Below are positions 5,180 through 55,715 of a stretch of 63,222 nt of DNA, piece by piece. The stretch's first letter is position 1, and the number at the start of each line of letters is the position of its first letter. The translations under genes were made by a program, and so were the position numbers. Under the pieces are notes generated by a model. That model was not told the origin of the DNA and made no database searches. It worked only from the letters and a program-made list of their open reading frames with translations. The stretch is from an uncultured Fibrobacterota bacterium (GTDB lineage: Bacteria; Fibrobacterota; Chitinivibrionia; Chitinivibrionales; FEN-1185), in the NCBI GenBank assembly GCA_963753345.1, contig CAVWBU010000052.1, positions 1 through 63,222 of the forward strand. Reading direction: 5' to 3'.

Positions 5180-5543
5180 GGGGGAAGTGTCCCCCTAGGG
5201 TGCAGCCTCCTCGGAAAGGTCTTTGTTTGTCGAGTCCGTTAACCTTGCCTTGGGGTCTGCACCCATACCCCCTCGTGGGTAGCCCCCCAGTGAATTGATT
5301 TGCAAGAAAGAAACATCGGCTGCGGGGGCACCGAGAAAAGCAGTTGAATAGTTGAGAAGTTGAGAGGTTGAGAAGTTCAAAGAAGAAATCATTATTTTGT
5401 TCTTGAGGATTCGGACTGGCGCAAGCGTAAACCTTGACTAATGAGACCCTCGCTGCCGCGCGTTAGGTGGACTGGAGGGTGAGCCAAAGCGAATTGCCGG
5501 CCGACCCGACCCCGAGCTTGTCGAGGGGGAGGGGGAACGCCCA
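5180..5543 (+). repeat. composite intergenic element (A + octamer array + C + TTGACT + short B)
   Basis: A 5180-5332, AGTTGAGA array 5342-5378, TTGACT 5434, B 5455-5543 internally deleted between GACCC repeats. Confidence 0.85.
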
Positions 5544-5577
5544 AGTCTTTTAAGATATTTTGTAAAGGAGCAGCAAG

Positions 5578-7069
5578 ATGAATTCAGCGTCATCAAAACC
5601 AGAATCCTCCGACGTCTTCGACCTCGACCTCCACCACAAATACCTTTATTTCCGCCGCACGAAGATAGTGGCGACCATAGGCCCGGCCACGTCGTCGCCG
5701 GAAAAGCTGAGGCGGCTTATTGCCGGGGGGCTTGACGTCGCGCGAATCAATTTCTCGCACGGCGAGGCGCGCGACCACCTGAAGACCATCGGGCTCATCA
5801 GATCGATCTCTGCGAAGCTCGGAAAACCCGTGGCGATACTCGGGGACTTGTGCGGTCCCAAGATCCGCGTGGGCGAATTCGAGGGCGGATCGGCGGCGCT
5901 CAGAAACGGATCAACGGTTTTCATCACGACGAAGCCCGTGATGGGCACGGCCACGATTATCCCTTCGCAGTACAGGGGAATAATAAAGGAATCACAGCCC
6001 GGAAATTCAATTTTGCTTGACGACGGCAACCTTGAACTCAAAGTGGTAAGGAAATACAAAGACAGGATTGAAGCAAAGGTGGTGAACGGCGGGGTTCTCA
6101 AGAACCACAAGGGCATGAACCTGCCCGATGCAAAGCTCGGCGTGGCCGCGCTCACCGCAAAGGACAGGGAAGACGTGCTCTATTGCATCAAAGGCGAGGT
6201 TGACTATATCGCACTGTCGTTTGTGAGGAAGCCGAAAGACATTACCGACCTTAAACAATGGCTGGCCCGCAACAACGCCGACATCCCGGTGATTGCGAAA
6301 ATAGAAATGCCCGAGGCGCTCAAAAACATCCGCGCGATCATGGAACTCGCCGACGGCATTATGGTCGCCCGCGGCGACCTGGGCGTGGAGCTTCCCGCAA
6401 AAAAAGTCCCCATCATCCAGAACAAGCTCATTCAGATCGCGAACAAGATGAGCAAACCCGTTATCGTCGCCACGCAGATGCTCGAAAGCATGATCGAACA
6501 TCCGCGGCCCACGCGCGCCGAGGTCACCGACGTGGCGGCCGCGTGCCTTGCCGGCGCTGACGCCGTGATGATGTCTGCCGAGACCGCCGCAGGGAAATTC
6601 CCCCTCGAGTCGTTTGCGACCATGAATTCAATTTTGCGCGAGACCGAGGCGTACCAGTTCTTCTCGCGGGGCGGAAGGTTCGGCGGTTATTTCCACGGCC
6701 GCGCGAGCGGCCTGCTCGACGCGATCGGCGAGGCGACCGCGCAATTGTCGCGCGACCTGATGGTGCACTGCATTTTCGTGCTCACCGCGTCGGGCTACAC
6801 CGCGCGTATCGTGTCGTCGGACCGGCCGGCCGCGCCCGTCATCGCGTTCACGCATTCGGAAAAGGTGGCCCGGCGCATGCACCTGTTATGGGGCGTGTAT
6901 CCGCATCTTGTAAAGAAGGCGCTCACCACGCAGGAACATCTCACCATTGGCGAGAGCATTCTCAGGGAGAAGAGACTTGCGAAAGAAGGGCGACTTTGTG
7001 ATTATGATTTCGGGACTGAAGGATATCGGAACCAAGGCGACGGCGATAGTGCTGCACAGAGTTGGATAG
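5578..7069 (+). CDS. pyk: pyruvate kinase (one-base frameshift near 6985)
   Basis: RRTKIVATIGPA, RINFSHG, IAKIE, MVARGDLGVE, ATQMLESM; native C-terminus GDFVIMISG..IVLHRVG* lies in another frame ending 7069. Confidence 0.93.
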
Positions 7070-7092
7070 GATATTTTAAAAAAACAAAATAC

Positions 7093-7518
7093 TGGGCGTT
7101 CCCCCGCTTCGCGGGGTCGGTTCTCCTCCGGGCTCGGCTTGTCAGCCTCGTTGCCGGTCCGCCCCTATGCCTGTCGGCGGGGTCGGCCGGCAATCCCGCT
7201 ATGGCGGGACCACTCCGTCGCCCCTAACGCGCGGCAGAAGAAGCCTATTCAGTCTGGTTTTTTATTGCGCCAATCGGAATACTCAGTACAAACCGGAATC
7301 TTTTCCCCAATCCTGCTGTCAACTGCCAACTGTCAACTCTCAACTATTCTTCTTGGTGCCCCCGCAGCGTAGTTTCTGGCTTGCCACCGAACTGTCAAGG
7401 GGGCTACCCAGAGAGGGGAGCGCAGGACCGGCGCGGAATAAGGTGAACGCTGAAAATGTGAGGCTGGGTCGGAGGACGGGGACGACCCTGGAAGTACCCG
7501 ACGGGGTAGACTTCCCCC
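7093..7518 (-). repeat. composite intergenic element, full, minus strand
   Basis: A 7355-7518, heptamer array 7316-7345, C 7265-7280, B 7093-7235. Confidence 0.88.
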
Positions 7519-7536
7519 GATTTCATTTTGCTTTAT

Positions 7537-9375
7537 TTAATTTTGCTCACCAACTACAATCTTCCTTGCCTTCCCATCTTGATTCCTTAAAATCAAGCAC
7601 CCCATCCCGGCCCTCTTCAGCACCGTCCTTAACTCATTATCCGAAATATCACCCCTCACCGTAAACACCGTCCGTCCTCTCAAATCCGTGCACTTGATCC
7701 ATCCCGCCTGACGTTTGAAAGGCGCTGTCAAAGTATTAAATCCGTTCGCCACTCCCGCCGACGTTCCCTTGAGCAGCACCGCGGTTATGGAAAATGCCGG
7801 GAGGCTCATCGACAGCGTTGTTCCGGACACGGCAACGGATTTGCGCTTGAGCGCGTTCGTTGTGGCGGTAAACGTCTCGGTGGCAGGAAGGCCGGACAGT
7901 TCGAGGGTCGAATCGGGTCCGGCCTGGGGCGTGAACCCGGAAAACGAGATCTGCGCCTGCTGCGCGGTTGACGGGAAACGGTTGACAAGAATGACCGTGA
8001 GGGAGTCGCCGGCTGCATTGACAGAGGAGTATGCCGAGACCATGGTGTCGAGGTCCGACGTTGAAAGCACGCGGGTCGTCTTTGCACAGGTTGAAAATAA
8101 ATGCAGCACTTCCCACTGGCCCGGATACCAGTCCCAGGGCGTGAAGATGGTGGCGCCCTGGTCGGCGAACGTCCCCATCATCGACGCATACCACAAGGCT
8201 ATCGCGTTTGCGCTTCCGGTGAGCGCGCCGTGCTCCGAAACGGAGAAGCCGACGTTGTTGTTTGTGCCCATATACTGCGCAAGCCACCGCCGGCTGCGTT
8301 CCATCACATATTCTTTTGTCTGGTTGTTGTCCCAGGAGCCGCTCACGTTCTTTACGCCGTTGGCCCCGGGGTAATTGTACGTGGTGTCGAACCAGACGCG
8401 ATGGAGCTGGGTGATGTCGTGGTCGTTGTTCGTGCCGGGATAGAAGTGGAAGTCGAGCACGTCGAGTAGCCGCACGCCGGACGCCGTCTGCTCCTCGGCC
8501 ACGCGCTTGATGAAATATTCGAGCCAGCAGAAATTGCGCGTCGTGCCGCCGTCGCTGCCGGGAATGGTCACGTTGTTCCACGCCCACCACTGCCATTCGT
8601 TTGTAAAGACCGGGCCGACAAGCTTGATGCCCGGGAATTGCGCCCGCGCCACCTTTGCAACAGCGAAATATTTCGAAAGATAGGTTTCCACGGGCATGGG
8701 CGAGGTGACCACGTCGTCGTGCGTGGAGTTCCAGACTTCAGGCTCGTTGTCCATGTTCCAGTAGCGCAAAAGCGTGCTGTCGAGGCCAAGGCCGCCCGCC
8801 GACACCGGCGAGAAGAAACTTGCAAAGATGCCGGCCGTGGAATCGGCAGGCCAGTTCATCAGATATTTGGTGATGTCGCCCCCGCCGCACCAGTTTTGCG
8901 ACACGTCGGCGGTCCACTGGCACTGGTTGTAGTCCCAGCAGTCGAAGTTGGCGCTGTCGGTGCGCGCGGCCATCCCAAGCAATTGCAGCGCCCACAGGAG
9001 ACTCACCCCGGGAAGACGCTTCTGGACATCCTGCGAAGTAAAGCCCCAATCGTGCGCGTACACGTTGTTGTACCAGTCCGGGTGGGACGAGAGTTTCCTT
9101 CGCCAGTTGTATTTGGTGCTGTTATTGCCGCCGTTGTCGCGGCTCATGCGCAGGCCCGCGGCCTTGTAGAGGGCAATGTTGTCCGCGCTGGTCGGAGTGG
9201 TCGGATCGTCGGAAAAATCGTTGTTGCGGCCGTAAATGTAGGGCGAAATGGGAAGGCGGCCAACCTGGGCATTGATGGTGATGTTCACGGCGGCCAGAAT
9301 GGATTGCGCAAGGATGGCAGCCATAAAACATGCTATGACTATTTGATGTTTTGCCATGAAGAAACGTGGAAACAT
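7537..9375 (-). CDS. secreted glycoside hydrolase family 44 (endoglucanase/xyloglucanase)
   Basis: signal peptide, ISPYIYGRN, GGNNSTKYNW, MDNEPEVWNSTHDDV, LLDVLDFHFYP. Confidence 0.85.
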   Translation of the reverse strand: MFPRFFMAKHQIVIACFMAAILAQSILAAVNITINAQVGRLPISPYIYGRNNDFSDDPTTPTSADNIALYKAAGLRMSRDNGGNNSTKYNWRRKLSSHPDWYNNVYAHDWGFTSQDVQKRLPGVSLLWALQLLGMAARTDSANFDCWDYNQCQWTADVSQNWCGGGDITKYLMNWPADSTAGIFASFFSPVSAGGLGLDSTLLRYWNMDNEPEVWNSTHDDVVTSPMPVETYLSKYFAVAKVARAQFPGIKLVGPVFTNEWQWWAWNNVTIPGSDGGTTRNFCWLEYFIKRVAEEQTASGVRLLDVLDFHFYPGTNNDHDITQLHRVWFDTTYNYPGANGVKNVSGSWDNNQTKEYVMERSRRWLAQYMGTNNNVGFSVSEHGALTGSANAIALWYASMMGTFADQGATIFTPWDWYPGQWEVLHLFSTCAKTTRVLSTSDLDTMVSAYSSVNAAGDSLTVILVNRFPSTAQQAQISFSGFTPQAGPDSTLELSGLPATETFTATTNALKRKSVAVSGTTLSMSLPAFSITAVLLKGTSAGVANGFNTLTAPFKRQAGWIKCTDLRGRTVFTVRGDISDNELRTVLKRAGMGCLILRNQDGKARKIVVGEQN

Positions 9376-9531
9376 TGTTGTCCTCCTTCAAATCCTATCA
9401 CGTGTGATCAATTCACGATGGAAACAGGCATGACAAACCATTTCGGCATCCCGCTTTACAAACCCGTTCCTGTCAATAATATAAGGTAGTTGCCGGAGCG
9501 AATTATGATAAAAAAACGAAAGCGAGGGAGG

Positions 9532-17119: not shown

Positions 17120-17268
17120 GGAAATGATGATCAATCCCTGCCCTTGTCCCAAGAGAAAATGCGCACGCCATGGCGATTGCGGTCCCTGCCGTGAATATCA
17201 CGCGCAGAAAGGCAAACTGCCGCGATGCGAGAGGAAAAAGATGAGCATTTGGCCATGGGGTGGGGAGA

Positions 17269-17496
17269 AGTTGAATGTTGAAGGTTGAAAGTTGACAGCA
17301 TGAGCAAGAAGCGGATGCTGAGAGCTTCTTTTCTTCCGCGTTAGGGGCGACTGGAAAAACGGTCCCGCTTGAGGCGGGATGCCGCCCGGACCCGGCCCTG
17401 TGGGCCATAGGGCCGTGGCGGCCCGAGGCCGAAGGCCGAGACCGGAAGGAGAACCGACCCGAGTCTGAGCATAGGCGAGGGCGAGGGGAACGCCCA
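17269..17496 (+). repeat. partial composite element (heptamer array + B)
   Basis: GTTGAAA-type array 17269-17297; B 17336-17496. Confidence 0.85.
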
Positions 17497-17526
17497 TTAC
17501 TCTTGATTGGTTCAAATAAGAAAGAC

Positions 17527-18897: not shown

Positions 18898-18933
18898 TGA
18901 GATACTTCGTTGTCAATATAAATAAGTCTTGGT

Positions 18934-19356
18934 GGGGGAAGTTTCCCCCTAGCTGCGGCCCGGACGCGCCGCTTTACAAACTAGCATCCCGGAGGCGCGT
19001 CCAGTCCTCCGCTACCCCTTCCTGGGTGCACCCCAAGTGAATGCAGTTGCAAGAATCAAGCACCTGTGTGGGGGCACCCACGAGGAGCAGTTGAAAAGTT
19101 GAAACGTTGAAAAGTAGAAAATAGAAACAATGAGCTTGACCGGTTTATTGCGAATGCCGATTGGCGCGAGAAGATGCAATTGACTGAATAGAACTCTGTT
19201 GCCGCGCGTTAGGTGGACCGGAGGGGGCGCCAGAGCGCATTGCCGCCTGATCCCTAGCCGAAGGCGATTGGGACAGGCGGCAACGAGGCCGGACGGCCGA
19301 GCCCGCAGGGAGACCGACCCGACCCCGAGCAAAGTCGAGGGGGAGTGGAACGCCCA
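18934..19356 (+). repeat. composite intergenic element, full
   Basis: A 18934-19079, AGTTGAAA array 19089-19127, C about 19150-19168, TTGACT 19180, B 19201-19356. Confidence 0.9.
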
Positions 19357-19408
19357 TCTCCCACTTCCAAGAAATAGAATAGAAATAGTAGTATATTTTC
19401 AAGAGTCC

Positions 19409-19984: not shown

Positions 19985-19998
19985 GAAGTATAAAAGAT

Positions 19999-20174
19999 TG
20001 GGCGCCCCGCCGCGCTGACGCGCGTCGGCGGCCCTCCCTTCCGGTCCACCCCTTCGGGTGCTTCCAAGGGTCGTCGGCCTTTGGCCTCGGGCCGCCACGG
20101 CCCTATGGCCCACAGGGCCGGGTCCGGGCGGCATCCCGCTCCAGCGGGACCTCCAGTCCGGCCTGGCGCGTGGC
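19999..20174 (-). repeat. module B' copy (GCGCC/GGCGC subtype)
   Basis: minus strand reads GCCACGCGCCAGGCCGGACTGGAGG...CGGCGGGGCGCCCA. Confidence 0.85.
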
Positions 20175-20264
20175 AACAGAAATCTTTCGCAGTCGTCACA
20201 TCTGACTGATTGGAGTGCATGTGCATTGTTTCAAGCGAATGCTACAACGCGCAAGTACTACAAC

Positions 20265-20451
20265 TTGACAGAATGGATTCCCGTATTCGCGCGTTAGGTG
20301 GACTGGAGGGTGAGCTAGAGTGAATTGCCGGCCGACCCCGGCCGAAGGCCATCGGGGCGGTCCGGCAACGAGGCGAACAGCCGAGCCCGGAAGGAGACCG
20401 ACCCCATGGAGAGGCACACAGCCGTGCGCCTCTCCATGGGGGGAACGCCCA
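20265..20451 (+). repeat. TTGACA + module B copy
   Basis: TTGACA 20265; CGCGCGTTAGGTGGACTGGAGG...GGGGAACGCCCA. Confidence 0.85.
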
Positions 20452-20466
20452 AGTCTTTTCTTTATT

Positions 20467-22623: not shown

Positions 22624-22802
22624 TTGACTGAATAGAATTCCGTTACTGTGCGTTAGGGGCGACTGGAGGTCCCGCTAGAGCGGGATGCTGCCCGGACCCG
22701 GCCCTGTGGGCCATAGGGCCGTGGCGGCCCGAGGCTGAAGGCCGAGACCGGAAGGAGAACCGACCCGAGCCTCAGTTTTGACGTAGGCGAGGGGAACGCC
22801 CA
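22624..22802 (+). repeat. TTGACT + module B copy
   Basis: TTGACT 22624; B 22645-22802. Confidence 0.85.
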
Positions 22803-23299
22803 GGTCTTCTCTTTGTATTTACTTTTCGCTTTCTTTCTCTTCTTTGCACCAGCGACGTCACCCTCGGATAAAACCCCCACTGCTCGTAGAACTTGAACGC
22901 CGACTCGTTGCCGACCGCAACGTTGACGGACGCCGATTTCACCTTCTTCCTTCCGAACCAGTTCAGCATCCGCTTGACAAGCGAACTGCCGACGCCACGG
23001 CGGCGAAAAGACTCGTCGACATACATCGACTCGATTTCGGCATGGCCGCGGCTGTTGATGACCGCGACACAGTATCCAACGCATCGTCTTCCGGCGGCAC
23101 TCTCCGCGAGCGCGATGCGCAGCGAGCCTGCGGCCGCCTTTTCCAGCAGATCGGCCCTCCGGCCGGGCCAGCGCATGGTTTGAAACTCGCCGCTGAAATG
23201 GACGGAAATGCCCGCATGATGGCGGGTGAGCTTTCGCCACAACGGCGCGATTGTTTCGAGAAGCGGGGCGCCGCCTTCGATGATACGGAAATTCGTCAT
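22772..23299 (-). CDS. GNAT family N-acetyltransferase
   Basis: EIESMYVDESFRRRGVG, NESAFKFYEQWGF; stop codon lies inside module B. Confidence 0.85.
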   Translation of the reverse strand: MTNFRIIEGGAPLLETIAPLWRKLTRHHAGISVHFSGEFQTMRWPGRRADLLEKAAAGSLRIALAESAAGRRCVGYCVAVINSRGHAEIESMYVDESFRRRGVGSSLVKRMLNWFGRKKVKSASVNVAVGNESAFKFYEQWGFYPRVTSLVQRRERKRKVNTKRRPGRSPRLRQN

Positions 23300-24510: not shown

Positions 24511-24600
24511 AAGAGTTCAAAGTTGAAAGTTGCAAGTTGAAAGCAAGATAGCGGAAAACAGAAAAAATCCCGGACTTTGAACTTTCAACTTTGAACTCTT
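24511..24600. repeat. 21-bp inverted repeat built from heptamer arrays
   Basis: AAGAGTTCAAAGTTGAAAGTT (24511-24531) and its exact reverse complement (24580-24600). Confidence 0.85.
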
Positions 24601-24806
24601 GCATTTATTCCAGCCACACCATCCGGGAGTGGTGGCCTGTTCATTTATGTGAAGTAATTCGGTGTGCCACGATCATCCTTGATCGTATTCTTCTGTTCAT
24701 CCTCCAAATCCCTACTGCGATCCTTGAAAACCAAACCGCAGGTAATCCGCCCTCTCAGCAGCTCAAACATCTTGGGGAATAATCAGTAGACAATTCTATC
24801 TTATCT

Positions 24807-24898
24807 GTCAACTACCAACCGTCAACTGTCAACTCTTCTTTTTCAACTCTTCACTCTTAACTCTCAACTCTGAACTCTCAACTTTCAACTTGTAACTT
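24807..24898. repeat. degenerate heptamer tandem array (TCAACTC-like)
   Basis: about a dozen imperfect units, overlapping the 3' end of the minus-strand ORF. Confidence 0.8.
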
Positions 24899-28666: not shown

Positions 28667-28790
28667 GAAACCTGTCTTCGTGGACGACAGTGGCACACGT
28701 TTTTTGATTTCCGGTCAAACAGGGTACTCGTGCGCTGTTGCACCATGACCAAAATAAAAATTGGAGCCTTTCCTGTCGGCTATCGTTTCT

Positions 28791-28932
28791 GCGTGCCCCC
28801 GCAGCGATGCTTCGGGCTTGCCACTGATTTGTCAAGGGGGCTACGCAGGAGGGGGTAGCGGAGGACCGGCGCGGAATAAGGTGAACTTTGAGAATACGAG
28901 CGCCGGGCCGGAGCGAGGGGGAGCCTTCCCCC
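28791..28932 (-). repeat. solo module A copy
   Basis: minus strand reads GGGGGAAGGCTCCCCCT...CTGCGTAGCCCCC...TGCGGGGGCACGC. Confidence 0.85.
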
Positions 28933-28969
28933 ACATGAAGATTTGTTTTATTGACAAGTATGAATTTAT

Positions 28970-29932: not shown

Positions 29933-30176
29933 AGACCGATCCTGGTATGGTTGAGGTGCTTCTTCGCAAATGCAAAGAGCTGAAAATAGTTCTTTCCCGA
30001 GGCGCAGGCGACGTTGTTATGCACAGGATGATTAAATACGGAGGCCGCTACGCCGTATTGTTGATTTCGGGCCGTTACGCGGAGCCATGTTCTTTTTCGC
30101 AGGTGCCGAAGCCCCCGGAACCTTGCTGGGGGGTATTCAATTATTTTATACACTCATTTATAGCAGGGGAATACCC

Positions 30177-31061
30177 ATGCGCGGTCTCAAGATTGCGGTT
30201 TCCGGGAAAGGCGGGGTGGGAAAATCCACGCTCGCTGCTGCGCTGTGCCGAATATTTTCCGGCAAAGGCCAGAGAGTGATCGCCATAGACGCCGACCCCG
30301 ATGCGAACCTGGCTTCGGCCCTGGGATTTCCGCAGGAATTTCTGCCGAAGATCCGACCCCTGGCGCGGGAAGCGGGCCTCATTGAGCAGCGAACCGGTGC
30401 GATTCCGGGCAGGGCCGGGCAGATGTTCTCGCTGTCGCCGGAAGTTGCCGATATCGCCGAGAAGTACGGGCTTGAGCACAACCGCGTTTCCCTGCTCGTG
30501 CTCGGCGCCGTGAAATCCGGCGGCGGCGGCTGCGCGTGCCCTGAAAACGTGTTTCTCAAAAAGCTCATCCGCCACCTCGTACTGCGCGACGACGAAACCG
30601 TGGTGGTCGACATGGAACCCGGCATCGAGCACCTGGGCCGCGCCACGGCGCAGGGCGTTGACGCGATGATAATCGTCCTCGAGCCCGGAACGAGGAGCAG
30701 GGAGACGGCGAGGCGGATAATTAACTTGTCAAAGGACATAGGCCTTTCGAGCAAGCTTTTCTTTGTGCTTAACAAGATAAGAAATGATGATGATGAGCGG
30801 GCGCTGCTTTCGGAAGATTTCGGCGCGATTGAAGTTCTGGGAAGAATTCCATTCGATGATAAATTTGTTGATGCTGATTGCAAGGGAATTTCGATTCTTG
30901 ACATGCCGGGAACAAAGGATCTTAAGGCGGGGTTTGAGGCGATAGCTTATAGATTATTGACAATAGAAAATGGAAAGAGTCTCAAGGGGGGAGGTCTCCC
31001 CCTCGCTCCGGCCTCCTCGGCCTTCGGCCTGCGGGGTCCTGCGCTGCCCCCTCATGGGTAG
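30177..31061 (+). CDS. cooC: CooC-type CODH nickel-insertion ATPase
   Basis: SGKGGVGKST, DADPDANL, GGGCACPEN, DMEPGIEHLGR; 3' end reads into module A. Confidence 0.9.
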   Translation: MRGLKIAVSGKGGVGKSTLAAALCRIFSGKGQRVIAIDADPDANLASALGFPQEFLPKIRPLAREAGLIEQRTGAIPGRAGQMFSLSPEVADIAEKYGLEHNRVSLLVLGAVKSGGGGCACPENVFLKKLIRHLVLRDDETVVVDMEPGIEHLGRATAQGVDAMIIVLEPGTRSRETARRIINLSKDIGLSSKLFFVLNKIRNDDDERALLSEDFGAIEVLGRIPFDDKFVDADCKGISILDMPGTKDLKAGFEAIAYRLLTIENGKSLKGGGLPLAPASSAFGLRGPALPPHG

Positions 31062-31367
31062 CCCCCCTAGCGAGTTGATGTGAGAGATAGAAACTTTTAC
31101 TGCGGGGGCACCGATAGGAATTGTGGATTGATGATTGCGGATTGCGGATTGAAGAATGAAGAGTCTCTAACAGATTGCCTTGAAATTCAGGATGGCGAAA
31201 AGTTAAGCTTGACTAATGATATTTCTTATGCCGCGCGTTAGGGGCGACGGAGGGTGCGCTAGAGCGCATTGCCGGCTGACCCCGCCGAAGGCATAGGGGC
31301 GGTCCGGCAACGAGGCGAATAGCCGAGCCCGGAGGAGAACCGACCCCGCGAAGCGGGGGAACGCCCA
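30986..31367 (+). repeat. composite intergenic element, full
   Basis: A 30986-31112, GATTGCG array 31119-31158, TTGACT 31209, B 31230-31367. Confidence 0.9.
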
Positions 31368-31397
31368 CTTTTTTAATACGAGGAGAATAGAACTATC

Positions 31398-32510: not shown

Positions 32511-32568
32511 TCAACCAGTCAACTCATCAACGCATCAACTCATTAACCCATCAACCATTCCAAACCAA
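32511..32568. repeat. octamer tandem array (TCAACNCA)
   Basis: TCAACCAG TCAACTCA TCAACGCA TCAACTCA TTAACCCA TCAACCAT. Confidence 0.75.
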
Positions 32569-33369: not shown

Positions 33370-33577
33370 TGCGGATGCCGATTGGCGCGAAAAAGTTGTT
33401 TGAATGATAAAAGTTCCTATGCCTCGCGTTAGGTGGACCGGAGGGTGAGCCAGAGCGAATTGCCGGCCGACCCTTCGCCGGAGGCGACTAGGGGCGGACC
33501 GGCAACGAGGCGAATAGCCGAGCCCGGAGGAGAACCGACCCGAGCCAGAGTTTTAACGAAGGCGAGGGGAACGCCCA
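33370..33577 (+). repeat. partial composite element (C + TTGAAT + B)
   Basis: GCGGATGCCGATTGGCGCGA 33371-33390; TTGAAT 33400; B 33421-33577. Confidence 0.85.
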
Positions 33578-33600
33578 GATTCTTAGTTACTTGGAGGAAG

Positions 33601-35543
33601 ATGTTAAAAAATCAGGAAAATCTGTCTCATTCCGATCCTGCAACTGTTCAAATGCGGGATGCGGCAAAAAAGCGGGGCATAGAAACCGTATGGGACCGCT
33701 CTGCCGCGAATGTCGTTTGTAAATTCGGCGTCGAGGGGCTGTGCTGCAAGAACTGCAACATGGGGCCGTGCAGAATTTCTGCGAAGACGCCGCGGGGCAT
33801 GTGCGGGGCCGACGCAGACACCATCGCTGCGCGGAACCTGAGCCGCGCCGTCGCGGCCGGAACGTCGGCGCATTCGGACCACGGCCGCCACCTTGTGCGC
33901 ACGCTGCGCATGGTGGCCGAGGGGAAAACCGACTCGTACAAGATAATGCCGATGAGCGGAAACTCCTGGAAGTGGCGGAACTTTACAAGATAGATACCAA
34001 GGACCGGGGGGCACTCGACATAGCGCGTGACCTTGCCGACGCACTGGATGCGGAATTCGCGCACAGTGAAGAACCCATGAAGACGCTGTCCCAAGCGCCT
34101 GTCAAGCGCCAGGCGATATGGCAGAAAGCGGGCGTCCGGCCGCACGGCATAGACCATTCGGTGGTGGAGCTCATGCACCGCACGCACATGGGTGTGGACC
34201 ACGCGTTCGACCATCTTGAACTGGGCACGATCACAACATCGATCGCGGATGGCTGGGGTGGGTCCATGATCGCCACCGCGGTTTCCGACATCCTTTTCGG
34301 CACGCCGAAGCCGGTGCTCTCTTCCGTCAACCTCGGCGTCATTGCGAAAGACCACGTGAACATCGTGGTGCACGGCCACGAGCCCGCGCTGTCCGACTGT
34401 GTGGCGGCGGCGTGCGAGGAACCCGCCGCGATCGAATATGCAAAAAGCAAGGGCGCGGCCGGGATCCGGCTGTCGGGCATCTGCTGCACCGCCAACGAGA
34501 TGCTCATGCGGCGCGGCATTCCCGTGGCCGGGAATTTCCTCCAGCAGGAGCTTGCCATCATGACCGGCGCCGTGGAAATGATGCTCGTGGACGTGCAGTG
34601 CATCATGCCGTCGCTCGCGTCGGTGGCGGCCTGCTTCCACACCAGGGTGGTGGCCACGTCGAAGCTCGCGCACACCGCCGGTTTCGAGACCGTCGACTTC
34701 AATGAGGAGCACGCCATGGAACAGGCGCGCTCGCTGGTGAGGTCAGCAATCGACAACTTTGCAAACAGGAAGAAAGACATGGTGGAGATCCCCGACAGCC
34801 GCGTCGATTTTGTGGCGGGGTTTTCGGTGCGCGCCATCCACGAGATGCTCGGCGGCCGTTTCCGCAGCACCTTCCGGCCGCTCAATGATGCCATTATCGA
34901 CGGCCGCATACGCGGGATCGCCGGCGTTGTCGGATGCAACAACCCGAAGAAGAACCTCGACGGTACCATTGTGCCTCTTGTCAAGGAGCTTATTGCCCAT
35001 GACGTGCTGGTCCTGCTCACCGGGTGCGCGGCGATAAGCTGCGCCAAGGCCGGGCTGCTGTCGCCCGAGACCGCGCGCCAAGCGGCTTCGCCGGGTCTTG
35101 CCGAAGTGTGCGAAGCCATCGGCATCCCGCCAGTGCTGCACATGGGGTCGTGCGTCGACAACAGCAGAATACTGTCGGCTGCCTGCGACGTTCTGCGCGA
35201 GGGCGGTCTCGGCGAAGACATTTCCGACCTTCCCGCAGCGGGCGCTGCGCCCGAATGGATGAGCGAAAAGGCCGTGGCGATAGGCCACTACTTCGTGGCC
35301 TCGGGCATGCTCGTGCTGCTCGGAAGTCCGCTCCACGTAGTCGGCGGCGAGAATCTGAACAAGATGCTCACGCAGGGCGTTGAAGAGACGTTCGGCGGAA
35401 AATTCGCCTGGGGTTCGCATACCGCAACGCAGGTGAAGATCATACTCGACCATATCGACAAGAAACGCGAGGCGCTCGGCATAAACACAAAGAGGCAGCG
35501 CATGCTGTTTGACATGAAGGAAAGAAGGGCGCTCGATGTCTAA
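33601..35543 (+). CDS. cooS: anaerobic Ni-Fe carbon monoxide dehydrogenase (frameshift near 33945)
   Basis: CCKNCNMGPCRI and AHSDHGR in frame 1; VHGHEP, GICCTANE, VDVQC, GCNN, HMGSCVD, SEKA in frame 2. Confidence 0.93.
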
Positions 35544-40397: not shown

Positions 40398-40428
40398 AGC
40401 TTCGCATTTTTGTCCATGAAAGATGACT

Positions 40429-40636
40429 TGGGCGTTACCCTCCCCCTCGCACGTGCTCGGCGTCGGGTCGGTTCTCCTTCCGGTCCACCCCTTCGGGTGC
40501 TTCCAAGGGTCGTCGGCCTTCGGCCTCGGGCCGCCTCGGCCCCTATGCCGCGGTAGCGGCGGGGCCAGGCGGCATCCCGCTTTGGCGGGACCTCCAGTCG
40601 CCCCTAACGCGCGGCATCGGAAATATATTCTGTCAA
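40429..40636 (-). repeat. TTGACA + module B copy
   Basis: B 40429-40615; TGTCAA at 40631-40636. Confidence 0.85.
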
Positions 40637-40728
40637 GGACTATATCTTGCGCTATTTGGAAACATTATGATCTCGCGCAAGTAAACTCCTATTTGTCAGG
40701 TATGCATAGAGTGTGGAATGTTCCTGAT

Positions 40729-40868
40729 GCCACGCGCCAGGCAGGACTGGAGGCCGCGCCAGAGCGCGGTGCTGCCTGACCACGGCCCGCAGGGCCTTTG
40801 TGGCAGGCAGCCCGAGGCCGAAGGCCGAGACCGGAAGGACGGCCGCCGCCGTCTTCGGCGGGGCGCCC
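40729..40868 (+). repeat. module B' copy
   Basis: GCCACGCGCCAGGCAGGACTGGAGG...CGGCGGGGCGCCC. Confidence 0.85.
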
Positions 40869-41000
40869 GGATCTTCTCTTGAGTTTTGAGACAGGCTGGC
40901 CTTCCCCCGCCAAATAGTATTAATGCATAATTTGGTATTCTTTCCCACAATCAAGCATATTCTATGGTTTCCAAAATGAAACCTTTGCACCGGGAGGCAC

Positions 41001-42698: not shown

Positions 42699-44988
42699 AT
42701 GTCCGCTATGCCGAAACATCTGGTTATCGTCGAATCGCCCGCAAAGTGCAAGACCATCTCCAAGTACCTGGGCAAGAACTATTCGGTGAGGGCCACCATG
42801 GGCCACATCATCGATTTGCCGGGCAAGGAATTCGGCGTCGACATCGAGCACGATTTCAAGCCGAAATACACGGTTGCGAAAGGGAAAAACCGCATCCTCA
42901 AGGCGCTCAAGGACGACGCTGCGCATGCGGACATCGTGTATCTCGCTCCCGACCCCGACCGCGAAGGGGAGGCCATTGCCTGGCACGTGGCCCAGAACAT
43001 TGCCAAGGCGAATGCGAACATCAAGCGCGTGCAGTTCAACGAAATCACCAAGCCCGCGGTGCTGGATGCCATCGCCCACCCGGGTGACATCGATATGAAC
43101 AAGGTGAACGCGCAGCAGGCGAGGAGGATCCTCGACAGGATCGTTGGGTACCAGATATCGCCCATCCTCTGGCGCACGGTGTTTCGCGGCCTGTCGGCGG
43201 GCCGCGTGCAGTCGGTGGCCCTGCGGCTCATCTGCGAACGCGAGGACGAAATCAAAGCATTTGTCAAGAGGGAATACTGGTCGATTCATTCCCAGCACCA
43301 GTACAAGGGCATAGAGTTTTGGGCGAAACTCCTATCGGTTGACGGTGCAAAGGTGCAGACGGTAGAGCAAGCCTGCGTGGTCTTGCCGAATGCCGCCGCG
43401 GCCAAAACCGTGATGGAACGGCTCAACAACAAGCCGTTCACCGTCATCGATGTGCAGCGTGTGGAAAAATCGCGAAGACCCTATCCACCGTTCATCACTA
43501 GCACGCTCCAGCAGGAAGCGGCGCGCAAGCTCAATTTCTCCGCGACAAAGACCATGATCATCGCACAGCAGCTTTACGAAGGACTCGAGCTGGGAGAATT
43601 GGGCAGCATGGGTCTCATCACCTACATGCGCACCGATTCCACGCGCATAGCGCAGGAAGCGCTGGCGGGCGCGCGTAAGTTCATCGCGTCGCAGTACGGC
43701 AACAAATACCTTCCGCAGGAACCAAGGGTGTATGCAAGCAGTAAAAACGCGCAGGACGCGCACGAGGCCATCCGTCCTTCCCAGGTGTCGCTGGAATTCT
43801 CACCCGACAAGGTACACGCTTATCTGAGCAAGGACCAGCAGCGGCTCTACGAGCTGATATGGAAGCGATTTCTCGCTTCACAGATGGAAAACGCACTATA
43901 CGATTCCACCCGTATCGACCTGGCGTCGGCCGGATGCACGTTCCGCGCCACGGGTTCCATCCAGAAATTCGACGGGTTTCTCGCTCTGTACGAGGAAACG
44001 ACCGAAGAGAATCGTCGCCGAGAACGGGGAAGACGAGAACGTGCGGCTTCCCGAGGTGGAGGCGAACGCGACGGTAGCGCTTCAGAAACTGTCCGACAAA
44101 CAGCATTTCACCCAGCCGCCGCCGCGGTATTCCGAGGCCGCGCTCGTGCGTGAACTCGAGGACAAGGGCATCGGCAGGCCGAGCACCTACGCGCAAATCA
44201 TCGACACGCTCAAGCGCCGGAAATACGTGGGCGTCGACAACAAGCGGTTTATACCCACCGAAGTGGGCTACATGGTGAAGGACATTCTGGTGAAGCAGTT
44301 TTCCGACGTGTTCGACGTCGGGTTCACCGCCACCATGGAAAACTCGCTGGACAAAGTGGAATTGGGCGAGGCCGACTGGGTGGCGGTGCTCAAGGACTTT
44401 TACGGGCCGTTTTCACGGCGGTTGGAGGGCGTCAAGGCCAACATTAAGGACCTCAAGGCGGCCAACCAGACGATTACGGGCCGCACCTGCCCCGAGTGCG
44501 GGAAGTTCCCACTCGTGGTCAAGTGGAGCAAAAACGGCAAGTTCCTCGCATGTCAGGGGTTTCCCGCGTGCCGCTACACCGAGCCCTTCGAGAAGGTGGC
44601 TCCGCAACAGTCCGGAGAGAAATGCGACAAGTGCGGCGCGCCCATGGTGGTGCTCAACATCAACGGCAACCGGTTCCTCGGCTGCTCGCGGTACCCGGAA
44701 TGCAGGAACACCAAGTCGATATCAACCGGCGTCGCGTGCCCGCGCGAGGGCTGCACGGGCCAGCTCATTGAGCGTAAAACCAAGCGCGGCCGCCTGTTTT
44801 TCGGGTGCAACACCTACCCGAAATGCACCTTTGCGACATGGGACAGGCCGGTCGCGAAGAAATGCCCGCACTGCGGGTTCGGCATCCTCGTGTTCAAGGA
44901 CACAAAACGCAAAGGCGCGTATCACCGTTGCCCGCAATGCAGGACCGAGTATCCCATCATCGAACCGAGCGCGGTCGAAGCACAGTAA
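42699..44988 (+). CDS. topA: DNA topoisomerase I (frameshift near 44010)
   Basis: IVESPAK, DPDREGE, SAGRVQS, ITYMRTD, AHEAIRP, then GIGRPSTY and C-terminal zinc ribbons. Confidence 0.95.
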
Positions 44989-46350: not shown

Positions 46351-46664
46351 GGGGGAAGTTTCCTCTAGGCAGAAGTTGAGAGGTTGAGAAGTTGAGGAGT
46401 TGAGAAGAAAAGCGTTGAAGAGTTGAATAGTTGAAACGTTGAAAAGAATAAGAGCCGACCGATTTGTGGCGAACGCCAAAAGGCGCAAATAGAAATGCTT
46501 GACTGAAGAGAATCTTGATGCCGCGCGTTAGGGGCGACTGGAGGTCCCGCCAAAGCGGGATGCCGCCCGGACCCGGCCCTGTGGGCCATAGGGCCGTGGC
46601 GGCTCGAGGGCAAGGCCCGAGACCGGAAGGAGAACCGACCCGAGCGCAGCGAGGGAAACGCCCA
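46351..46664 (+). repeat. composite element with A reduced to its first hairpin
   Basis: GGGGGAAGTTTCCTCT, octamer arrays 46374-46444, C, TTGACT 46499, B 46520-46664. Confidence 0.88.
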
Positions 46665-46786
46665 ACTCCTTTCTTTATTAAATATTGTTATAGCAAGTCC
46701 TGTTTTGGAAAACCACGTCACCGAACTATATTTTATTGGTTGCTGCCGATTCATCAATTGCCCCTATTCCGCCGAAAGGAACATGC

Positions 46787-51123: not shown

Positions 51124-51174
51124 AGATGGGGCAGGTGGGCCGGTGAAAATGTTTTGCAAATCAATTAAAAGACT

Positions 51175-51612
51175 TGGGCGCCCCGCCGCAGTGCGGCGGC
51201 GGCCCTCCTTCCAGGCTCGGCCTATCGGCCTCGTTGCCGCCAGCCACGAGGGCCCTGCGGGCCGTGGTCTGGCGGCAATGCGCTCCAGCGCACCTTTCAG
51301 TCCGGCCTGGCGCGCGGCAACGGAATTCCATTAAGTCAATTACTTCTTTTCGCGCCAATTGACATCCGCAAAATTAAATCGATAGAGGCTTCTTTTGCTA
51401 ATTGTCAATTTCTCAACTCTTTAACGCTTCAACTATTCAACGTTTCAACTTTTCAACTACTCTCCGTGGGTGCCCCCGCACAGGTGACTGGTTTTACAAC
51501 TACTTCCACTTAGGGTGCACCCAGGAGGGGGTAGCGGAGGACCGAACGCGCCTCCGGGATGTTTCCTTGTAAACCGGCGCGGACGGGCCGGAGCGAGGGG
51601 GAAACTTCCCCC
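51175..51612 (-). repeat. composite element, full, minus strand, B' subtype
   Basis: A 51469-51612, octamer array about 51405-51458, C 51350-51370, TTGACT 51339-51334, B' 51175-51318. Confidence 0.9.
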
Positions 51613-51667
51613 ACTAAGGATGGTATTCACAAGAGATAATTAAAAAAGGGAGAAAAACTCAAGAAGC

Positions 51668-53206: not shown

Positions 53207-55005
53207 TATTGTCCGGAAAGCGCTTTCAGTTGAAGGGAGTATTCTTTTACCTGTTCCAGGAGCGCCGCTCCGGTGCCGGGTTCCTTTTTCATTCGCTCGG
53301 TGCAGTCGCGGATCTTCTGTTGCAGGAACTTTTCCTGCAGGCGCTTCATGGTGTGCACAAGTTCTTCGTTCGCGTCGGCCGCGGGAGCTTCATTTGCAAA
53401 CGCGAAACTAACGATCCGTTTCTCGTCGTCGGACACCTTCGAAAGCAGGGTGTCGAGGTTCCGGCGCTCGTCGTAACTCGCCAGGATGGATAAATATAAT
53501 TTACCGGAGAATTGGTCCGTAAACGTTTCCGGCGGCACAAACTGCCGCGCTTCGGGGATAAGGGCCGGATTGCACAGCAGGAGCCGGACAAAATTCCCTT
53601 CGATGGTGCCGAAATATTCCGCCGCCTGGTCGGGCTGGCCGCGCGAATCCCCGTAAGGGCGCTGGCCCGGCCCCTTGCGGATTTGGCGGTACACCACGTC
53701 TTCGGCAAGCGAGAGTCGCTCGCCGATCTGCTTGACAAACTCACGCTGCACCACCGGATCGGACAGCGACTGTGCGAGCGGGGCAAGCGCCGAAAGCGCG
53801 GCCGATTTTCCATAGGGCGTGGTTGCCCCGCTGTCGGCCGCGGTCTTATCGATGATGAACTTCATGTAGTCCACAGAAGATTTGTCAAGCAGCTCCGCAA
53901 ACGCTGTTGCACCCTTTGCCTTCACGAAATCGTCGGGGTCCTCGTCGTTGGGAATGGTGAGCACCCGGATGTCGAAATTGTAGGGCGCAAGCACGAAGAT
54001 CGCTCTGCGGGCCGCCTCGATGCCGGCAGCGTCGCCGTCGAACACGAGAAAAATCGTATCGGTAAAGCGCCGGAGCGTGCGGGCGTGCGTGTCGGTGAAC
54101 GCGGTGCCGGAGGCGGCGATCACGTTCTTTATGCCGGCCTGGTACAGGGCGAGGAAATCCATGTACCCTTCCACGATGATCACGCTTTTCTTTTCGCGAA
54201 CGTGCCGGTGTGTTTCATGAAATCCGTACAGAATGCCGCTTTTGCGGTACAGCGGGGTTTCCGGCGAATTGAGGTACTTGGGCACGGCGGCGGCGGTGAG
54301 GCCCCGGCCGGCAAATCCCACGGGCCGCTTTGAACTGTCGAAAATGGGGAAGATGATGCGGTCGCGGAACCGGTCGTACATGCCGCCGGTGTCGGGCTTC
54401 ACAATTGCGAGTCCGGCACGGGCCACGAGCGTGTCGGCCGCGCCATGCTGCTTGGCGAAATCCAGAAACGCGGTCCACCCGGGCGGCGCGTACCCGAGCC
54501 GGAACTCCCGGATGGTCTCTTTTGACAATCCGCGCGAGACAAAGTAGTCTATGGCCAATGGAAAGTTCCGGGTCTGGCGGTAGTAGAAATCGAGCGCGAG
54601 ACGGTTGACGGTGAACAGCTCGTCCTTGGAGGGAAATCCTTGGGCCGGTTCCTCGCCGGGAGAAGGGGCGTACTCAGGCCCGTGTTTCGGGGGCGCAAGT
54701 TTTATGCCCGCTTCGTCGGCGAGGAGCCTGAGCGCCTCGGGAAAGGTGAGGCCCTCCAGCTCCATGAGGAAATTGAACACGTCGCCGCCCTTGTGGCAGC
54801 CGAAGCAGTAGTAGATTCCCTTGGCCGGCGACACCGTGAACGACGGCGTTTTCTCCTTGTGGAAAGGGCACAGCCCCTTGAGGTTCTGGCCCGTGGCCTT
54901 GAGCGCCACATGCCTGCCCACCACATCGGCGATATTGATTGCCGAGCGTATCTCCTCCTTTACGCTGTCGTCGAATTGTTTTTGAAGATTGGGTCCAGGG
55001 GACAT
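53206..55005 (-). CDS. dnaG: DNA primase
   Basis: [39 protein letters not shown]. Confidence 0.96.
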
Positions 55006-55090
55006 GATTAAGTTAAAAAATAGGTTTGAGCGGGGAATGGGGAAGAGGAAAAGTTAGAGCCTTACATGGTGTTGCAGAAATAGAAATGAT

Positions 55091-55234
55091 TGGGCGCCCC
55101 GCCGCTGTGCGGCGGCGGCCCTCCCTCCAGTCTCGGCGTTCGGCCTCGGGCCGCCACGGCCCTATGCCGCGGGAGCGGCGGGTCCGGGCGGCACCGCGCT
55201 TTGGCGCGGCCTCCGGTCCGGCCTGGCGCTGCGC
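55091..55234 (-). repeat. module B' copy
   Basis: minus strand reads GCGCCAGGCCGGACCGGAGG...CGGCGGGGCGCCCA; GATTGCG-type array at 55376-55408. Confidence 0.85.
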
Positions 55235-55278
55235 AGAAGACAGTTGCCAGGAACTTGCATTGCGTTCGCATCTGTCAC

Positions 55279-55313
55279 GCCCCTCTCCAATCGGAGAGGG
55301 GACGGGGGTGAGG
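55279..55313. repeat. REP-like hairpin
   Basis: CCCCTCTCC-AATC-GGAGAGGGG followed by ACGGGGGTGAGG. Confidence 0.6.
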
Positions 55314-55388
55314 TCAGAAATCCATAAAAAAATATCGCTTATCAGATATCCGATTCCCAGAAAGAAAGCCTTTGTCAATCCGCAATCG

Positions 55389-55715
55389 TCAATCATCAAT
55401 CCGCAATTGTAAAGCGCGCCCTGCAGGATTCGAACCCGCAACCCTCCGGTCCGAAGGGTCCTGAGAGCATCGAAAAAACCGTAAAGTTTTGGCCTCCTTG
55501 AAAGCCTCACGGGCTTCGGTTTCGTCCGTGTAAGACAGAATATCTTCTTCGTCGTCCGTCCGTTTAACGAGGAGCCACAAGCCGCCGTGCTCAATCAATT
55601 GGACATCGCGCCCCTCCTCAGAGGCTTCATTGAAATCCCCGTATGAGTTGATTGTTTCACCTTCGTCATAGGCGATGGCTACTAAAGCGTCGAACTTTTC
55701 GGTTTTTGAGGACAT
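55389..55715 (-). CDS. small acidic hypothetical protein reading through the att site
   Basis: GGAGG RBS, Asp/Glu-rich; last ~25 codons come from the tRNA fragment and repeat. Confidence 0.5.
   Translation of the reverse strand: MSSKTEKFDALVAIAYDEGETINSYGDFNEASEEGRDVQLIEHGGLWLLVKRTDDEEDILSYTDETEAREAFKEAKTLRFFRCSQDPSDRRVAGSNPAGRALQLRIDD
55414..55456 (-). mobile_element. 3' half of tRNA-Arg(TCG): att site at an island border
   Basis: minus strand CTTCGGA-CCGGAGGGTT-GCGGGTTCGAATCCTGC-AGGGCGCGC; anticodon loop, T arm and 3' acceptor strand present; 5' half absent. Confidence 0.8.

Follow-up and report, generated by a model that had tools for sequence, protein, structure and literature searches.

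A polar, strand-specifically folded repeat cassette in the intergenic spaces of uncultured Chitinivibrionales-type Fibrobacterota

The BOX elements of Streptococcus pneumoniae are described, in the parts of the source consulted (PMC3049150), as composite, intergenic, high-copy and highly folded repeats of slow turnover, whose sites are mostly shared between relatives and which are thought to affect co-transcribed genes. In the same parts of that source, the MITE-type repeats (Correia, ERIC, Nezha and RUP) are non-coding, dispersed and folded when transcribed, and known members create promoters, RNase sites or attenuators (PMC3049150). BIME and REP sequences are portrayed, in the sections available of PMC2817692, PMC3116915 and PMC3733652, as extragenic, species- or lineage-specific mosaics of GC-rich hairpins with conserved linkers, without terminal inverted repeats (TIRs) or target site duplications (TSDs), linked to RAYT enzymes and with proposed roles in termination and mRNA stabilisation. 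Here we describe a dispersed non-coding element, termed the cassette, in a 63,222-nt stretch of DNA from an uncultured Fibrobacterota bacterium (contig CAVWBU010000052.1 of assembly GCA_963753345.1, positions 1–63,222; hereafter the window). A further point of reference is given by the ends of IS200/IS605 elements, PATEs and the omega/reRNAs of TnpB, which have no TIRs or TSDs and combine strand-specific subterminal structure with a short left-junction motif and a structured right end of ~150 nt that is best conserved. PMC6006769, of which part was consulted, is the source named for one set of IS200/IS605-type properties.

The full unit is a polar cassette of ~400–450 nt in which module A, a tandem array, a variable spacer, a conserved box, the motif TTGAC, module B and a U-rich tail follow one another in the same order on either strand. 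The preliminary description of this DNA had given such an order, which stands; the hairpin C that it placed between array and TTGAC does not, and is an essentially unpaired box, TGGCGCR, forming a 3-bp mini-hairpin at most. The cassette is modular, strand-specifically folded, old, dense, intergenic and free in its orientation, and it evolves by drift, insertions and deletions, and recombination between copies. We consider it reasonably probable that it represents a lineage-specific, composite, BOX/BIME-like family of small interspersed repeats of uncultured Chitinivibrionales-type Fibrobacterota, with orientation-dependent effects at the RNA level. The family is probably selfish.

Module A (~150 nt) is composed of a first hairpin of the conserved form G5A-NNNN-UC5, a variable second hairpin and a long helix closed by GGGU.GCCCCC/GGGGGC.ACC, and it ends in GCGGGGGCACC. 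The array that follows has 2–10 units of 7–8 nt with the core TTGA, purine-rich and C-poor, and in some copies is built of GATTGNG units. C accounts for 6% of eight window arrays and for 11.6% of the 45 nt after all 23 A copies, versus 28% in the core region of the window, and the heptamer period is kept although the unit sequence varies between copies and lineages. The box is present in 27 of the 48 full B copies of the window and the related loci described below, and in 26 of these it lies 32–37 nt upstream of the modelled B core (a doubtful one, at L080, lies at 12 nt). TTGAC, found in 29 of the 48 copies and absent from 19, is placed 11–12 nt after the box, and B begins ~30 nt later; by our reading of the alignment, many copies carry a TAGAAT-like hexamer 4–5 nt past TTGAC. 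B itself (95–260 nt) begins with GCG(UU/CC)AGG, ends with CGCCCA and folds into consecutive GC-rich hairpins (P2, P3/P3a/P3b, P4 and P5) closed by a 5-bp helix, P1, with tandem G.A pairs and GNRA-like loops in several of them. The tail after CGCCCA reads A-N-U-Y-U-U-U, with 56% T and 6% G at positions 3–14. Its U tract begins 5 nt after P1, and the hairpin nearest the 3′ end of B stops 8 nt short of that end. As RNA, the invariant box UGGCGCG is complementary to CGCG(UU/CC)A, which holds the 5′ strand of P1, at six or more of seven positions in 23 of the 27 boxed copies, and this pairing would exclude P1. The box and TTGAC are also the best-kept unpaired motifs at two orthologous sites. In cassettes where the second hairpin of A has its short form, this hairpin is the reverse complement of B helix P4 (L026, 1616–1632 with 1952–1968, 17 nt at 94%; window, 31015–31028 with 31284–31297, 14 nt at 86%), and one small palindromic unit appears to serve both orientations in A and B.

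A covariance model of B (R1), built from a hand-written structure on an alignment (A1) of the 14 window B copies, recovers exactly 14 copies in the window, with E-values from 5e-31 to 4e-9. Six full copies of A were detected with an nhmmer profile, and a seventh, a truncated 22-nt stub at 46351–46372, was found by direct reading of the sequence. These are the 14 B and seven A copies (one truncated) that had been counted by eye, and A and/or B is present at all 13 loci initially proposed. As had also been claimed, the flanks are free of the element: neither R1 nor the A profile has a match in 1–5170 or 55470–63222. The B 3′-end pattern has eight matches in the window versus 0.00 expected from 100 shuffles. 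By summed spans, the cassette DNA amounts to ~4.4 kb of the 50.2-kb core (~9%), or most of its longer intergenic spacers, with about one B per 3.6 kb, which is a very high load for a bacterial genome.

Compensatory change preserves the folds of A and B, which form on a single strand, and the expectation that diverged copies would retain their pairing is thereby borne out. In the alignment A3, in which 53 distinct B sequences are aligned to the model and pairing counts are inflated by this fitting, 91.8% of 1734 pair cells are standard pairs, versus 32–46% when the 3′ partners are slid by 1–3 columns; two-sided changes occur in 25 of 36 pairs (162 cells), and 0 of 500 shuffles reach the observed values. 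The window copies alone, in a MAFFT alignment that was not fitted to the model, are 91.1% paired with double changes in 15 of 36 pairs, and RNAalifold independently recovers P1, P2, P3, P3a, P4 and P5. P2 occurs as UCCCGC/GCGGGA, GUGCGC/GCGCAU and CCGCGC/GCGCGG, and additionally in a form with tandem G.A pairs; at one pair of P3, C-G is replaced by G-C in 21 of 49 cells; and P1 distinguishes the two subtypes, B1 having GCGUU/AACGC and B2 GCGCC/GGCGC. For A, 94.6% of cells are paired and five of 14 pairs show double changes, including a C-G pair of the closing helix that is G-C in four of 20 copies and a further pair compensated in one copy. Among the non-Watson-Crick cells of B, G.U/U.G (99) far exceed A.C/C.A (23), with 70 G.A, and the fold therefore belongs to the B-sense strand; this ratio does not tell RNA from single-stranded DNA. 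Folding energies of single sequences give z-scores of only −1.8 to −2.9, with little difference between the strands; in DNA this rich in GC, thermodynamics is thus not informative by itself. Compensatory substitutions beyond controls, the general hallmark of a structured RNA, are thus present in B, in an alignment that is partly model-fitted and with statistics that rest on related, paralogous copies of shared ancestry.

Loci in relatives were collected by scanning species-representative genomes with the B 3′-end pattern, which gave at least 93 loci; all counts on these L-numbered loci refer to the matches listed. At least 39 of them come from four Fibrobacterota metagenome-assembled genomes (MAGs), SMAG_U9540, fen_1185, MFD03044.bin.1.58 and AlinenSedimentsD2_bin-1055. 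The same cassette is found in at least three other Fibrobacterota/Chitinivibrionales MAGs and a B variant in a fourth, always beside housekeeping genes. R1 gives 40 matches (two of them duplicates from overlapping loci) in 36 of the 39 Fibrobacterota loci, and matches one of the 54 non-Fibrobacterota loci (Streptomyces, Kitasatospora and others), marginally (E = 0.0024). This one, L071 (1780–2120, from the 3.47-Mb assembly OW818690.1), holds a B-like element that has both ends in common with the family but a different interior, flanked by CGAACGT-type heptamers upstream and GAATGAA-type heptamers downstream, and through it the family may reach beyond the four MAGs. The proposed lineage specificity thus holds among the R1 matches in the listed loci, which come from Fibrobacterota/Chitinivibrionales MAGs plus this assembly. 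R1 missed three Fibrobacterota loci: L046 keeps no more than a 3′ remnant, the copy in L049 has a large insert and its 5′ end is damaged, and L090 holds a shorter variant; as L046, L090 and L071 indicate, the 3′ 50 nt are the most widely conserved part of B. The A profile has 17 further matches in the listed loci, 23 with those of the window, and a B lies 53–186 nt downstream on the same strand in 22 of the 23, including all 17 of the listed loci. The contigs of SMAG_U9540 (DATFYJ01) are just 2–20 kb long and four loci (L020, L032, L085 and L092) end inside B, so the repeats evidently break short-read assemblies of this lineage.

The history of the copies can be followed at orthologous sites. 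BLAST aligned four segments of the window (~5.2 kb in total) at 86–90% identity to two contigs (L014 and L059) of 'Chitinivibrionales bacterium SMAG_U9540', which is therefore a related but different Fibrobacterota species, at ~89% identity to the window. Both comparable sites, pfk-pyk (L014) and rpoD-ybgF (L059), carry the cassette in both species, so these insertions predate the split. Orthologous A modules are 78–80% identical, compared with 74–88% at third and 88–100% at first and second codon positions of the flanking genes; orthologous copies thus drift at about the synonymous rate and are not conserved like functional RNAs. Their structure also changes: the pfk-pyk array has about twice as many units in L014 as in the window, and the window B at this site (5452–5546) has lost P3–P4, the L014 ortholog being full length with a nested insert. 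Such inserts of ~60 nt in helix P3 are present in four SMAG_U9540 copies (L010, L014, L049 and L059) and in none of the window. The B of L059 joins a B2-type 5′ end to a B1-type 3′ end, leaving P1 broken, and its P2 and that of the window copy at this site are set apart by the coordinated change that distinguishes two variants of P2. The chimera, the P2 switch and the nested insert are signs of exchange between dispersed copies after speciation. Solo 3′ tails were found in four to five cases, 25–35 nt downstream of a complete B, and no solo 5′ heads; these tail counts comprise intergenic cases only, as the loose head and tail patterns matched mostly coding DNA. A 24-nt palindromic mini-insert was observed in the spacers of L003 (1743–1766) and L043 (1776–1799). 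Synteny between the window and L014 breaks right after pyk. Between MFD03044 and the window, both of which carry the cassette, a GH2 gene has just 69% identity, so the clade that shares it has members far apart.

The placement of copies relative to genes is nearly free. Of the 48 full B copies, 25 have a co-directional gene past their 3′ end and 23 a convergent one; 18 lie in sense and 11 in antisense within co-directional gene pairs, nine between convergent and five between divergent genes, and divergent spacers such as that of L022 are taken up almost completely by the cassette. The distance from the 3′ end of B to the stop codon is 10–85 nt in 20 of the 23 convergent cases; among the 25 co-directional ones, 14 or more have less than 85 nt to the start codon, with the Shine-Dalgarno region alone in between. 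R1 scores are independent of orientation (medians 109.9 and 107.4, p = 0.58), and by this measure copies in leader position are not better preserved than others. With nine B copies on the plus and five on the minus strand of the window, there is little bias relative to the leading strand as defined by GC skew. The neighbours that Pfam names are almost all housekeeping genes, of all kinds and functionally unrelated, and 92 of the 94 open reading frames (ORFs) of the listed loci are not transposases. Unbiased orientation, drift at about the synonymous rate and integrity independent of orientation are more in line with a mosaic repeat family than with a dedicated regulatory system, and the term candidate new system in the preliminary description was an overstatement. 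A scan of 16–35 kb for sigma-70 promoters and intrinsic terminators gave counts not above shuffles, with no promoter-like site upstream of any of the seven B copies in that interval and a single B end called terminator-like (17479–17495). Judged by eye, the spacings of the box and TTGAC do not fit sigma-54, sigma-28, extracytoplasmic function (ECF), extended −10 or Bacteroidetes-type promoters.

The earlier report of no TIRs, TSDs or cognate transposase also held in direct tests. An inverted-repeat search of four full cassettes returned internal hairpins only, none joining both ends. The longest k-mer shared by the two flanks averages 4.29 nt for 17 cassettes and 4.28 nt for 272 mismatched pairs, so no TSD is apparent. 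The flanks of the pfk-pyk cassette (5160–5172 and 5547–5566) do carry a near-identical 12-mer with the core AAGATATTT, 9 nt of it exact, and such a match occurs in one of the 272 control pairs; it is probably due to chance because the orthologous cassette in L014 has no such repeat. No Y1_Tnp/HUH, RAYT, OrfB_IS605/TnpB or reverse transcriptase (RT) domain was detected in 157 ORFs near copies (63 in the window and 94 in the listed loci, ~4 kb around each copy), and no tnpA or tnpB ORF lies within 2 kb of the B 3′ ends in ~40 listed Fibrobacterota loci. The two exceptions among the 94 listed-locus ORFs are identical DDE_Tnp_1 (IS4/IS5-like) genes of MFD03044.bin.1.58 (L007, 660–1520; L019, 2489–3349), inserted beside or into cassettes and directly upstream of B. 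In L007 the A module beside this gene is truncated at profile position 46, and the insertion sequence (IS) may prefer cassettes as targets.

For a composite, BOX/BIME-like repeat family, past spread and homogenisation would have taken place at the DNA level, as a non-autonomous element without TIRs or TSDs. Ectopic recombination or gene conversion, visible among the copies, would homogenise the family, and the original driver was most likely a trans-acting enzyme recognising single-stranded hairpins, a suggestion that we hold loosely. In at least 14 copies little or no promoter room is left (less than 85 nt from B to the start codon), and in divergent spacers such as that of L022 there is hardly any gap outside the cassette; in these places B, and sometimes the whole cassette, would have to form part of the 5′ leader of the next gene, and A part of the 3′ untranslated region of the preceding one. 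The predicted effect is punctuation at the RNA level, in which folded blocks would buffer transcript ends or attenuate read-through. Orientation would decide the outcome, since the array contains little C in sense, whereas in antisense it is rich in C and poor in G, as would be expected for sites of Rho loading. Core genes (pyk, cooS, purH, dnaG and rpoD) have A or B directly next to their stop or start codons, and from this placement their mRNA ends are very probably shaped by these modules.

Several observations weigh against this interpretation. No pair of empty and filled sites was found, so that mobility is inferred solely from copy number, subfamilies and truncated copies, and no mobilising enzyme was seen near the copies. 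In 15 of 21 cases the gene before A is co-directional with it, and in 13 of these 15 A lies 7–49 nt past the stop of that gene; such mild polarity (~p = 0.04) is unexpected of a purely selfish element. The conservation of an unstructured box and TTGAC hints at binding of a protein or polymerase. On the side of the data, the model-fitted A3 raises the pairing counts, the covariation of P1 is essentially one subfamily split (B1 versus B2), and genes within the loci were called with our own codon-bias scorer, trained on the Pfam-confirmed genes of the window, which is crude but reproduces the Pfam set.

Two other accounts of the same anatomy deserve attention, although we regard each as unlikely. 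B could be a high-copy, independently transcribed small RNA (sRNA) of ~150–190 nt, with the box and TTGAC as promoter, P1 tying the ends together, CGCCCA and the U tail as terminator, and A and the array as upstream control or insulator DNA. The anatomy does resemble that of an sRNA gene, with a conserved unstructured region at fixed distance upstream (TTGAC in 29 and the box in 27 of 48 copies), a covarying fold and a U-rich tail; free orientation (25:23) and orientation-independent integrity would be accounted for, and the TAGAAT-like hexamer 4–5 nt after TTGAC would put the transcription start at the foot of P1. However, none of the seven B copies of the 16–35 kb scan has a sigma-70-type promoter upstream, by our own reading TTGAC has no −10 element at 16–18 nt and the hexamer no −35 element at the right spacing, and TTGAC is missing from 19 of 48 copies. 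A U tract 5 nt after P1 is atypical for an intrinsic terminator, orthologous copies have large deletions and chimerism, and hundreds of paralogous sRNA genes would be unprecedented. Alternatively, a single-strand (HUH/Y1) transposon similar to IS200/IS605 or REP-RAYT could have left the modules behind as relics or as non-autonomous derivatives. TTGAC would then be the flanking target and cleavage motif, cleavage at the right end would take place at CGCCCA, and the transposase would bind the hairpins on single-stranded DNA; this, too, is improbable to us. It would agree with the lack of TIRs and TSDs usual in that superfamily, a strand-specific fold that tolerates G.T, a short conserved motif abutting the 5′ side and an invariant one ending the 3′ side, the last hairpin stopping 8 nt before the 3′ end, the wide conservation of the 3′ 50 nt (L046, L090 and L071), and four to five solo tails without a solo head. 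It is at odds with Y1_Tnp, OrfB_IS605 and RT domains in 0 of 157 ORFs, with multi-helix units of 150–190 nt instead of 20–40-nt palindromes tagged GTAG or CGTC, with the little bias of B (nine plus, five minus) relative to the skew-defined leading strand, and with the fixed A-array-B order, which a simple end-to-end element leaves unexplained. The left- and right-end hairpins of IS200/IS605 are alike; P2 and P5 are not.

Three further explanations were considered. The cassette could be a domesticated, orientation-coded punctuation device for transcription units and not merely selfish, a proposal that we find quite unlikely. In sense, the C-poor array and folded A and B would let RNA polymerase pass and give the downstream gene a protected, structured 5′ leader; in antisense, the array would act as a Rho-loading site ending the upstream transcript; and, by analogy with tRNAs in mitochondrial transcripts, the acceptor-like closing helix of B with its invariant CCA could serve as a processing site. 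If true, a single modular RNA/DNA element would mark most operon boundaries throughout a bacterial lineage. A dedicated cis-regulatory leader for a large regulon, riboswitch- or attenuator-like, with the box as alternative pairing partner of P1, is very unlikely. The positions less than 85 nt before start codons in 14 or more copies (nothing but the Shine-Dalgarno region intervening), the complementarity that excludes P1 (six or more of seven positions in 23 of 27 boxed copies) and the U-rich tract after P1 speak for it, but 23 of the 48 copies point towards the end of a convergent gene, with R1 scores equal to those in leader position, the genes downstream share no common function, deletions or chimerism affect orthologous copies, and the box never covaries. 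The constant sense orientation of riboswitches and attenuators is likewise not seen, with 25 co-directional and 23 convergent copies and 11 in antisense within co-directional pairs. Finally, we give practically no credence to an artefact of assembly chimeras, low-complexity GC-rich sequence or chance similarity. Three frameshift-like gene splits in the window do suggest indel errors, and single-copy z-scores are modest (−1.8 to −2.9); the family nevertheless occurs in four MAGs assembled independently in different projects, at conserved positions of orthologous sites, with E-values down to 1e-31 and compensatory substitutions. The presence in independent MAGs, the R1 matches and the compensatory changes refute this explanation.

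The core of the window (~3.7–55.5 kb) has 55–65% GC and positive GC skew throughout, and both window ends are lower in GC. By Pfam its gene content is housekeeping: pfk, pyk and glucose-6-phosphate dehydrogenase (G6PD); a CODH/ACS cluster; purH, topA and trmFO; exbB, exbD, tonB and tolB; rpoD and dnaG. The edge of the low-GC left flank, immediately before pfk, holds a direct tandem duplicate of a 247-bp unit, with 98–99% identity between the two copies (3206–3699). In the following account all B spans are R1 matches, all full A spans come from the nhmmer profile and the arrays were delimited with Tandem Repeats Finder. Between pfk and pyk lies a full plus-strand cassette (5173–5546; A 5173–5339, array 5342–5381, box ~5415–5425, TTGAC 5434–5438, B 5452–5546), whose B is the internally deleted 95-nt form (52.8 bits) noted above as orthologous to a full-length copy in L014. 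Downstream of the GH44 gene and convergent with pyk, a full minus-strand cassette (7090–7502) has A at 7348–7502, the array at 7316–7345 and B at 7090–7238. The pyk ORF (5578–7227) is apparently frameshifted, as it runs into this B past a conserved stop, TAG 7067–7069, which is in frame in the L014 ortholog. On the plus strand, an array (17268–17295) and B (17330–17499) without A lie just upstream of the MATE transporter gene (17268–17499 in all), and a full cassette (18927–19359; A 18927–19085, array 19089–19127, B 19198–19359) lies between that gene and algH. Two B copies then stand head-to-head: a minus-strand B2 copy with an extra hairpin (19996–20177), its 3′ end 11 nt from the algH stop, and a plus-strand copy (20283–20454), the 3′ end of which is 12 nt away from the stop codon of a GH30 gene convergent with it. 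The B with the top R1 score (153.6 bits) is at 22642–22805 on the plus strand, antisense between two minus-strand genes for a GNAT acetyltransferase and a GH30 protein.

Solo heptamer arrays follow at 24514–24543, 24574–24597 and 24805–24897, the last in minus sense. The first two are opposed and form a perfect 20-nt inverted repeat ~50 nt apart (24511–24599), right after an aldo/keto reductase gene, that is, a long hairpin purely of array units. A solo minus-strand A (28786–28938), with no array or B after it, lies 31 nt past the stop of an HMGL-like gene. The full plus-strand cassette at 30981–31370 has A at 30981–31119, an array of GATTGNG units at 31120–31152 and B at 31227–31370, which ends 27 nt before the next start codon; a ParA-like ORF (30087–31061) overlaps its A by 81 nt, for which a frameshift as in pyk may also be the cause. 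A solo 8-mer array in minus sense (TCAACNCA on the plus strand) is placed at 32511–32556 between two plus-strand genes. Inside the CODH/ACS cluster, between a cooC-like gene and cooS, a box and B are found on the plus strand (33381–33580; B 33418–33580), and cooS itself is split into 33601–33993 and 33741–35543 by an apparent frameshift. A second head-to-head pair is composed of a minus-strand B with an extra hairpin (40426–40618), its 3′ end 28 nt from the cdhD stop, and a plus-strand B2 copy upstream of purH (40726–40872). Another apparent frameshift splits topA into 42699–44153 and 44041–44988; these splits in pyk, cooS and topA are either assembly indel errors or pseudogenes. Between trmFO and exbB, the A stub (46351–46372), a long array (46371–46446) and B (46517–46667) form a plus-strand unit (46351–46667). 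The full minus-strand cassette after rpoD (51172–51618; A 51463–51618, array 51413–51459, B 51172–51321 of the B2 subtype) is convergent with the ybgF-like gene and has its ortholog in L059. The last unit (55088–55410, minus strand) comprises a B upstream of dnaG (55088–55237) and a GATTGNN array (55374–55407) after a fragment that resembles the 3′ half of a tRNA. This fragment (~55420–55470, minus strand), a T-arm GGTTCGAATCC with an acceptor strand, is not called as a tRNA by ARAGORN; it occupies the usual place of A before array and B, adjoins a region of 36–51% GC (55.9–58 kb) and may be the attachment-site remnant of an integrated island.

Searches for a described relative of the cassette agreed with the initial failure to assign it to a known family. 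Rfam 15 has no match in the whole window on either strand, at the gathering threshold or at E ≤ 1, the IS605-related and HEARO models included; ARAGORN reports no tRNA or tmRNA; and blastn ('distant' mode) of the full cassette against plasmids and phages gave no match. Among the papers retrieved on Chitinivibrionales and on intergenic repeats of Fibrobacteres, judged by titles and the beginnings of abstracts, none describes this family. As folds absent from Rfam, A and B would be worth modelling, since models would stop spurious ORF annotation at these places and would be of practical use in assembling Fibrobacterota from peat, lake and sediment metagenomes, as the repeats fragment assemblies.

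When the cassette is compared with known systems, the described MITE-type repeats differ from it by their TIRs and TSDs, which were tested for and are absent here, and the cassette is GC-rich and larger (to ~450 nt). With IS200/IS605 ends and the TnpB omega it shares the lack of TIRs and TSDs, strand-specific structure, a short motif at the left junction and a best-conserved 3′ part, but no tnpA or tnpB lies beside ~40 right-end loci, and the fixed upstream A and array have no counterpart there. Like REP and BIME sequences, as far as the consulted parts of their descriptions go, it is an extragenic, lineage-specific mosaic of GC-rich hairpins without TIRs and TSDs, with more than 100 copies expected per genome. 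In contrast to them, its units are multi-helix modules of 95–260 nt in a fixed A-to-B order and not alternating palindromes of 20–40 nt, no GTAG or CGTC tag was seen, its hairpins are joined into a single fold by the long-range helices P1 and P3, and there are tandem heptamer arrays. Among the window and the listed loci, head-to-head B pairs occur only at two window loci and L048, and no RAYT of the REP/REPIN kind is encoded in the 157 ORFs near copies. The likeness to BOX elements extends to the plan of the whole: two distinct end modules enclose a variable tandem array, B following A in 22 of 23 cases and array length differing between L014 and the window, and in the parts of the BOX description consulted the intergenic position, high copy number, extensive folding and sites shared between relatives agree as well. 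The boxB unit of BOX elements is ~45 nt long, whereas the array unit of the cassette is 7–8 nt. Compared by description and not by sequence, the end modules of the cassette are multi-helix folds of 150–190 nt, its composition is GC-rich where that of BOX is AT-rich, and it belongs to another phylum. The ends of the cassette also lack the TIR-type complementarity of boxA and boxC, and no IS with matching ends was seen, the sole IS found being the DDE_Tnp_1 element beside cassettes. Heptamer arrays and the conserved box are explained by no described repeat family. In summary, the closest analogue of the cassette in design is the pneumococcal BOX element and the closest in make-up are BIMEs and REPINs, as these are presented in the parts of the sources consulted; what is unusual in the cassette is the size and covariation of its folds, its heptamer arrays, its density and its persistence across an uncultured clade of Fibrobacterota.

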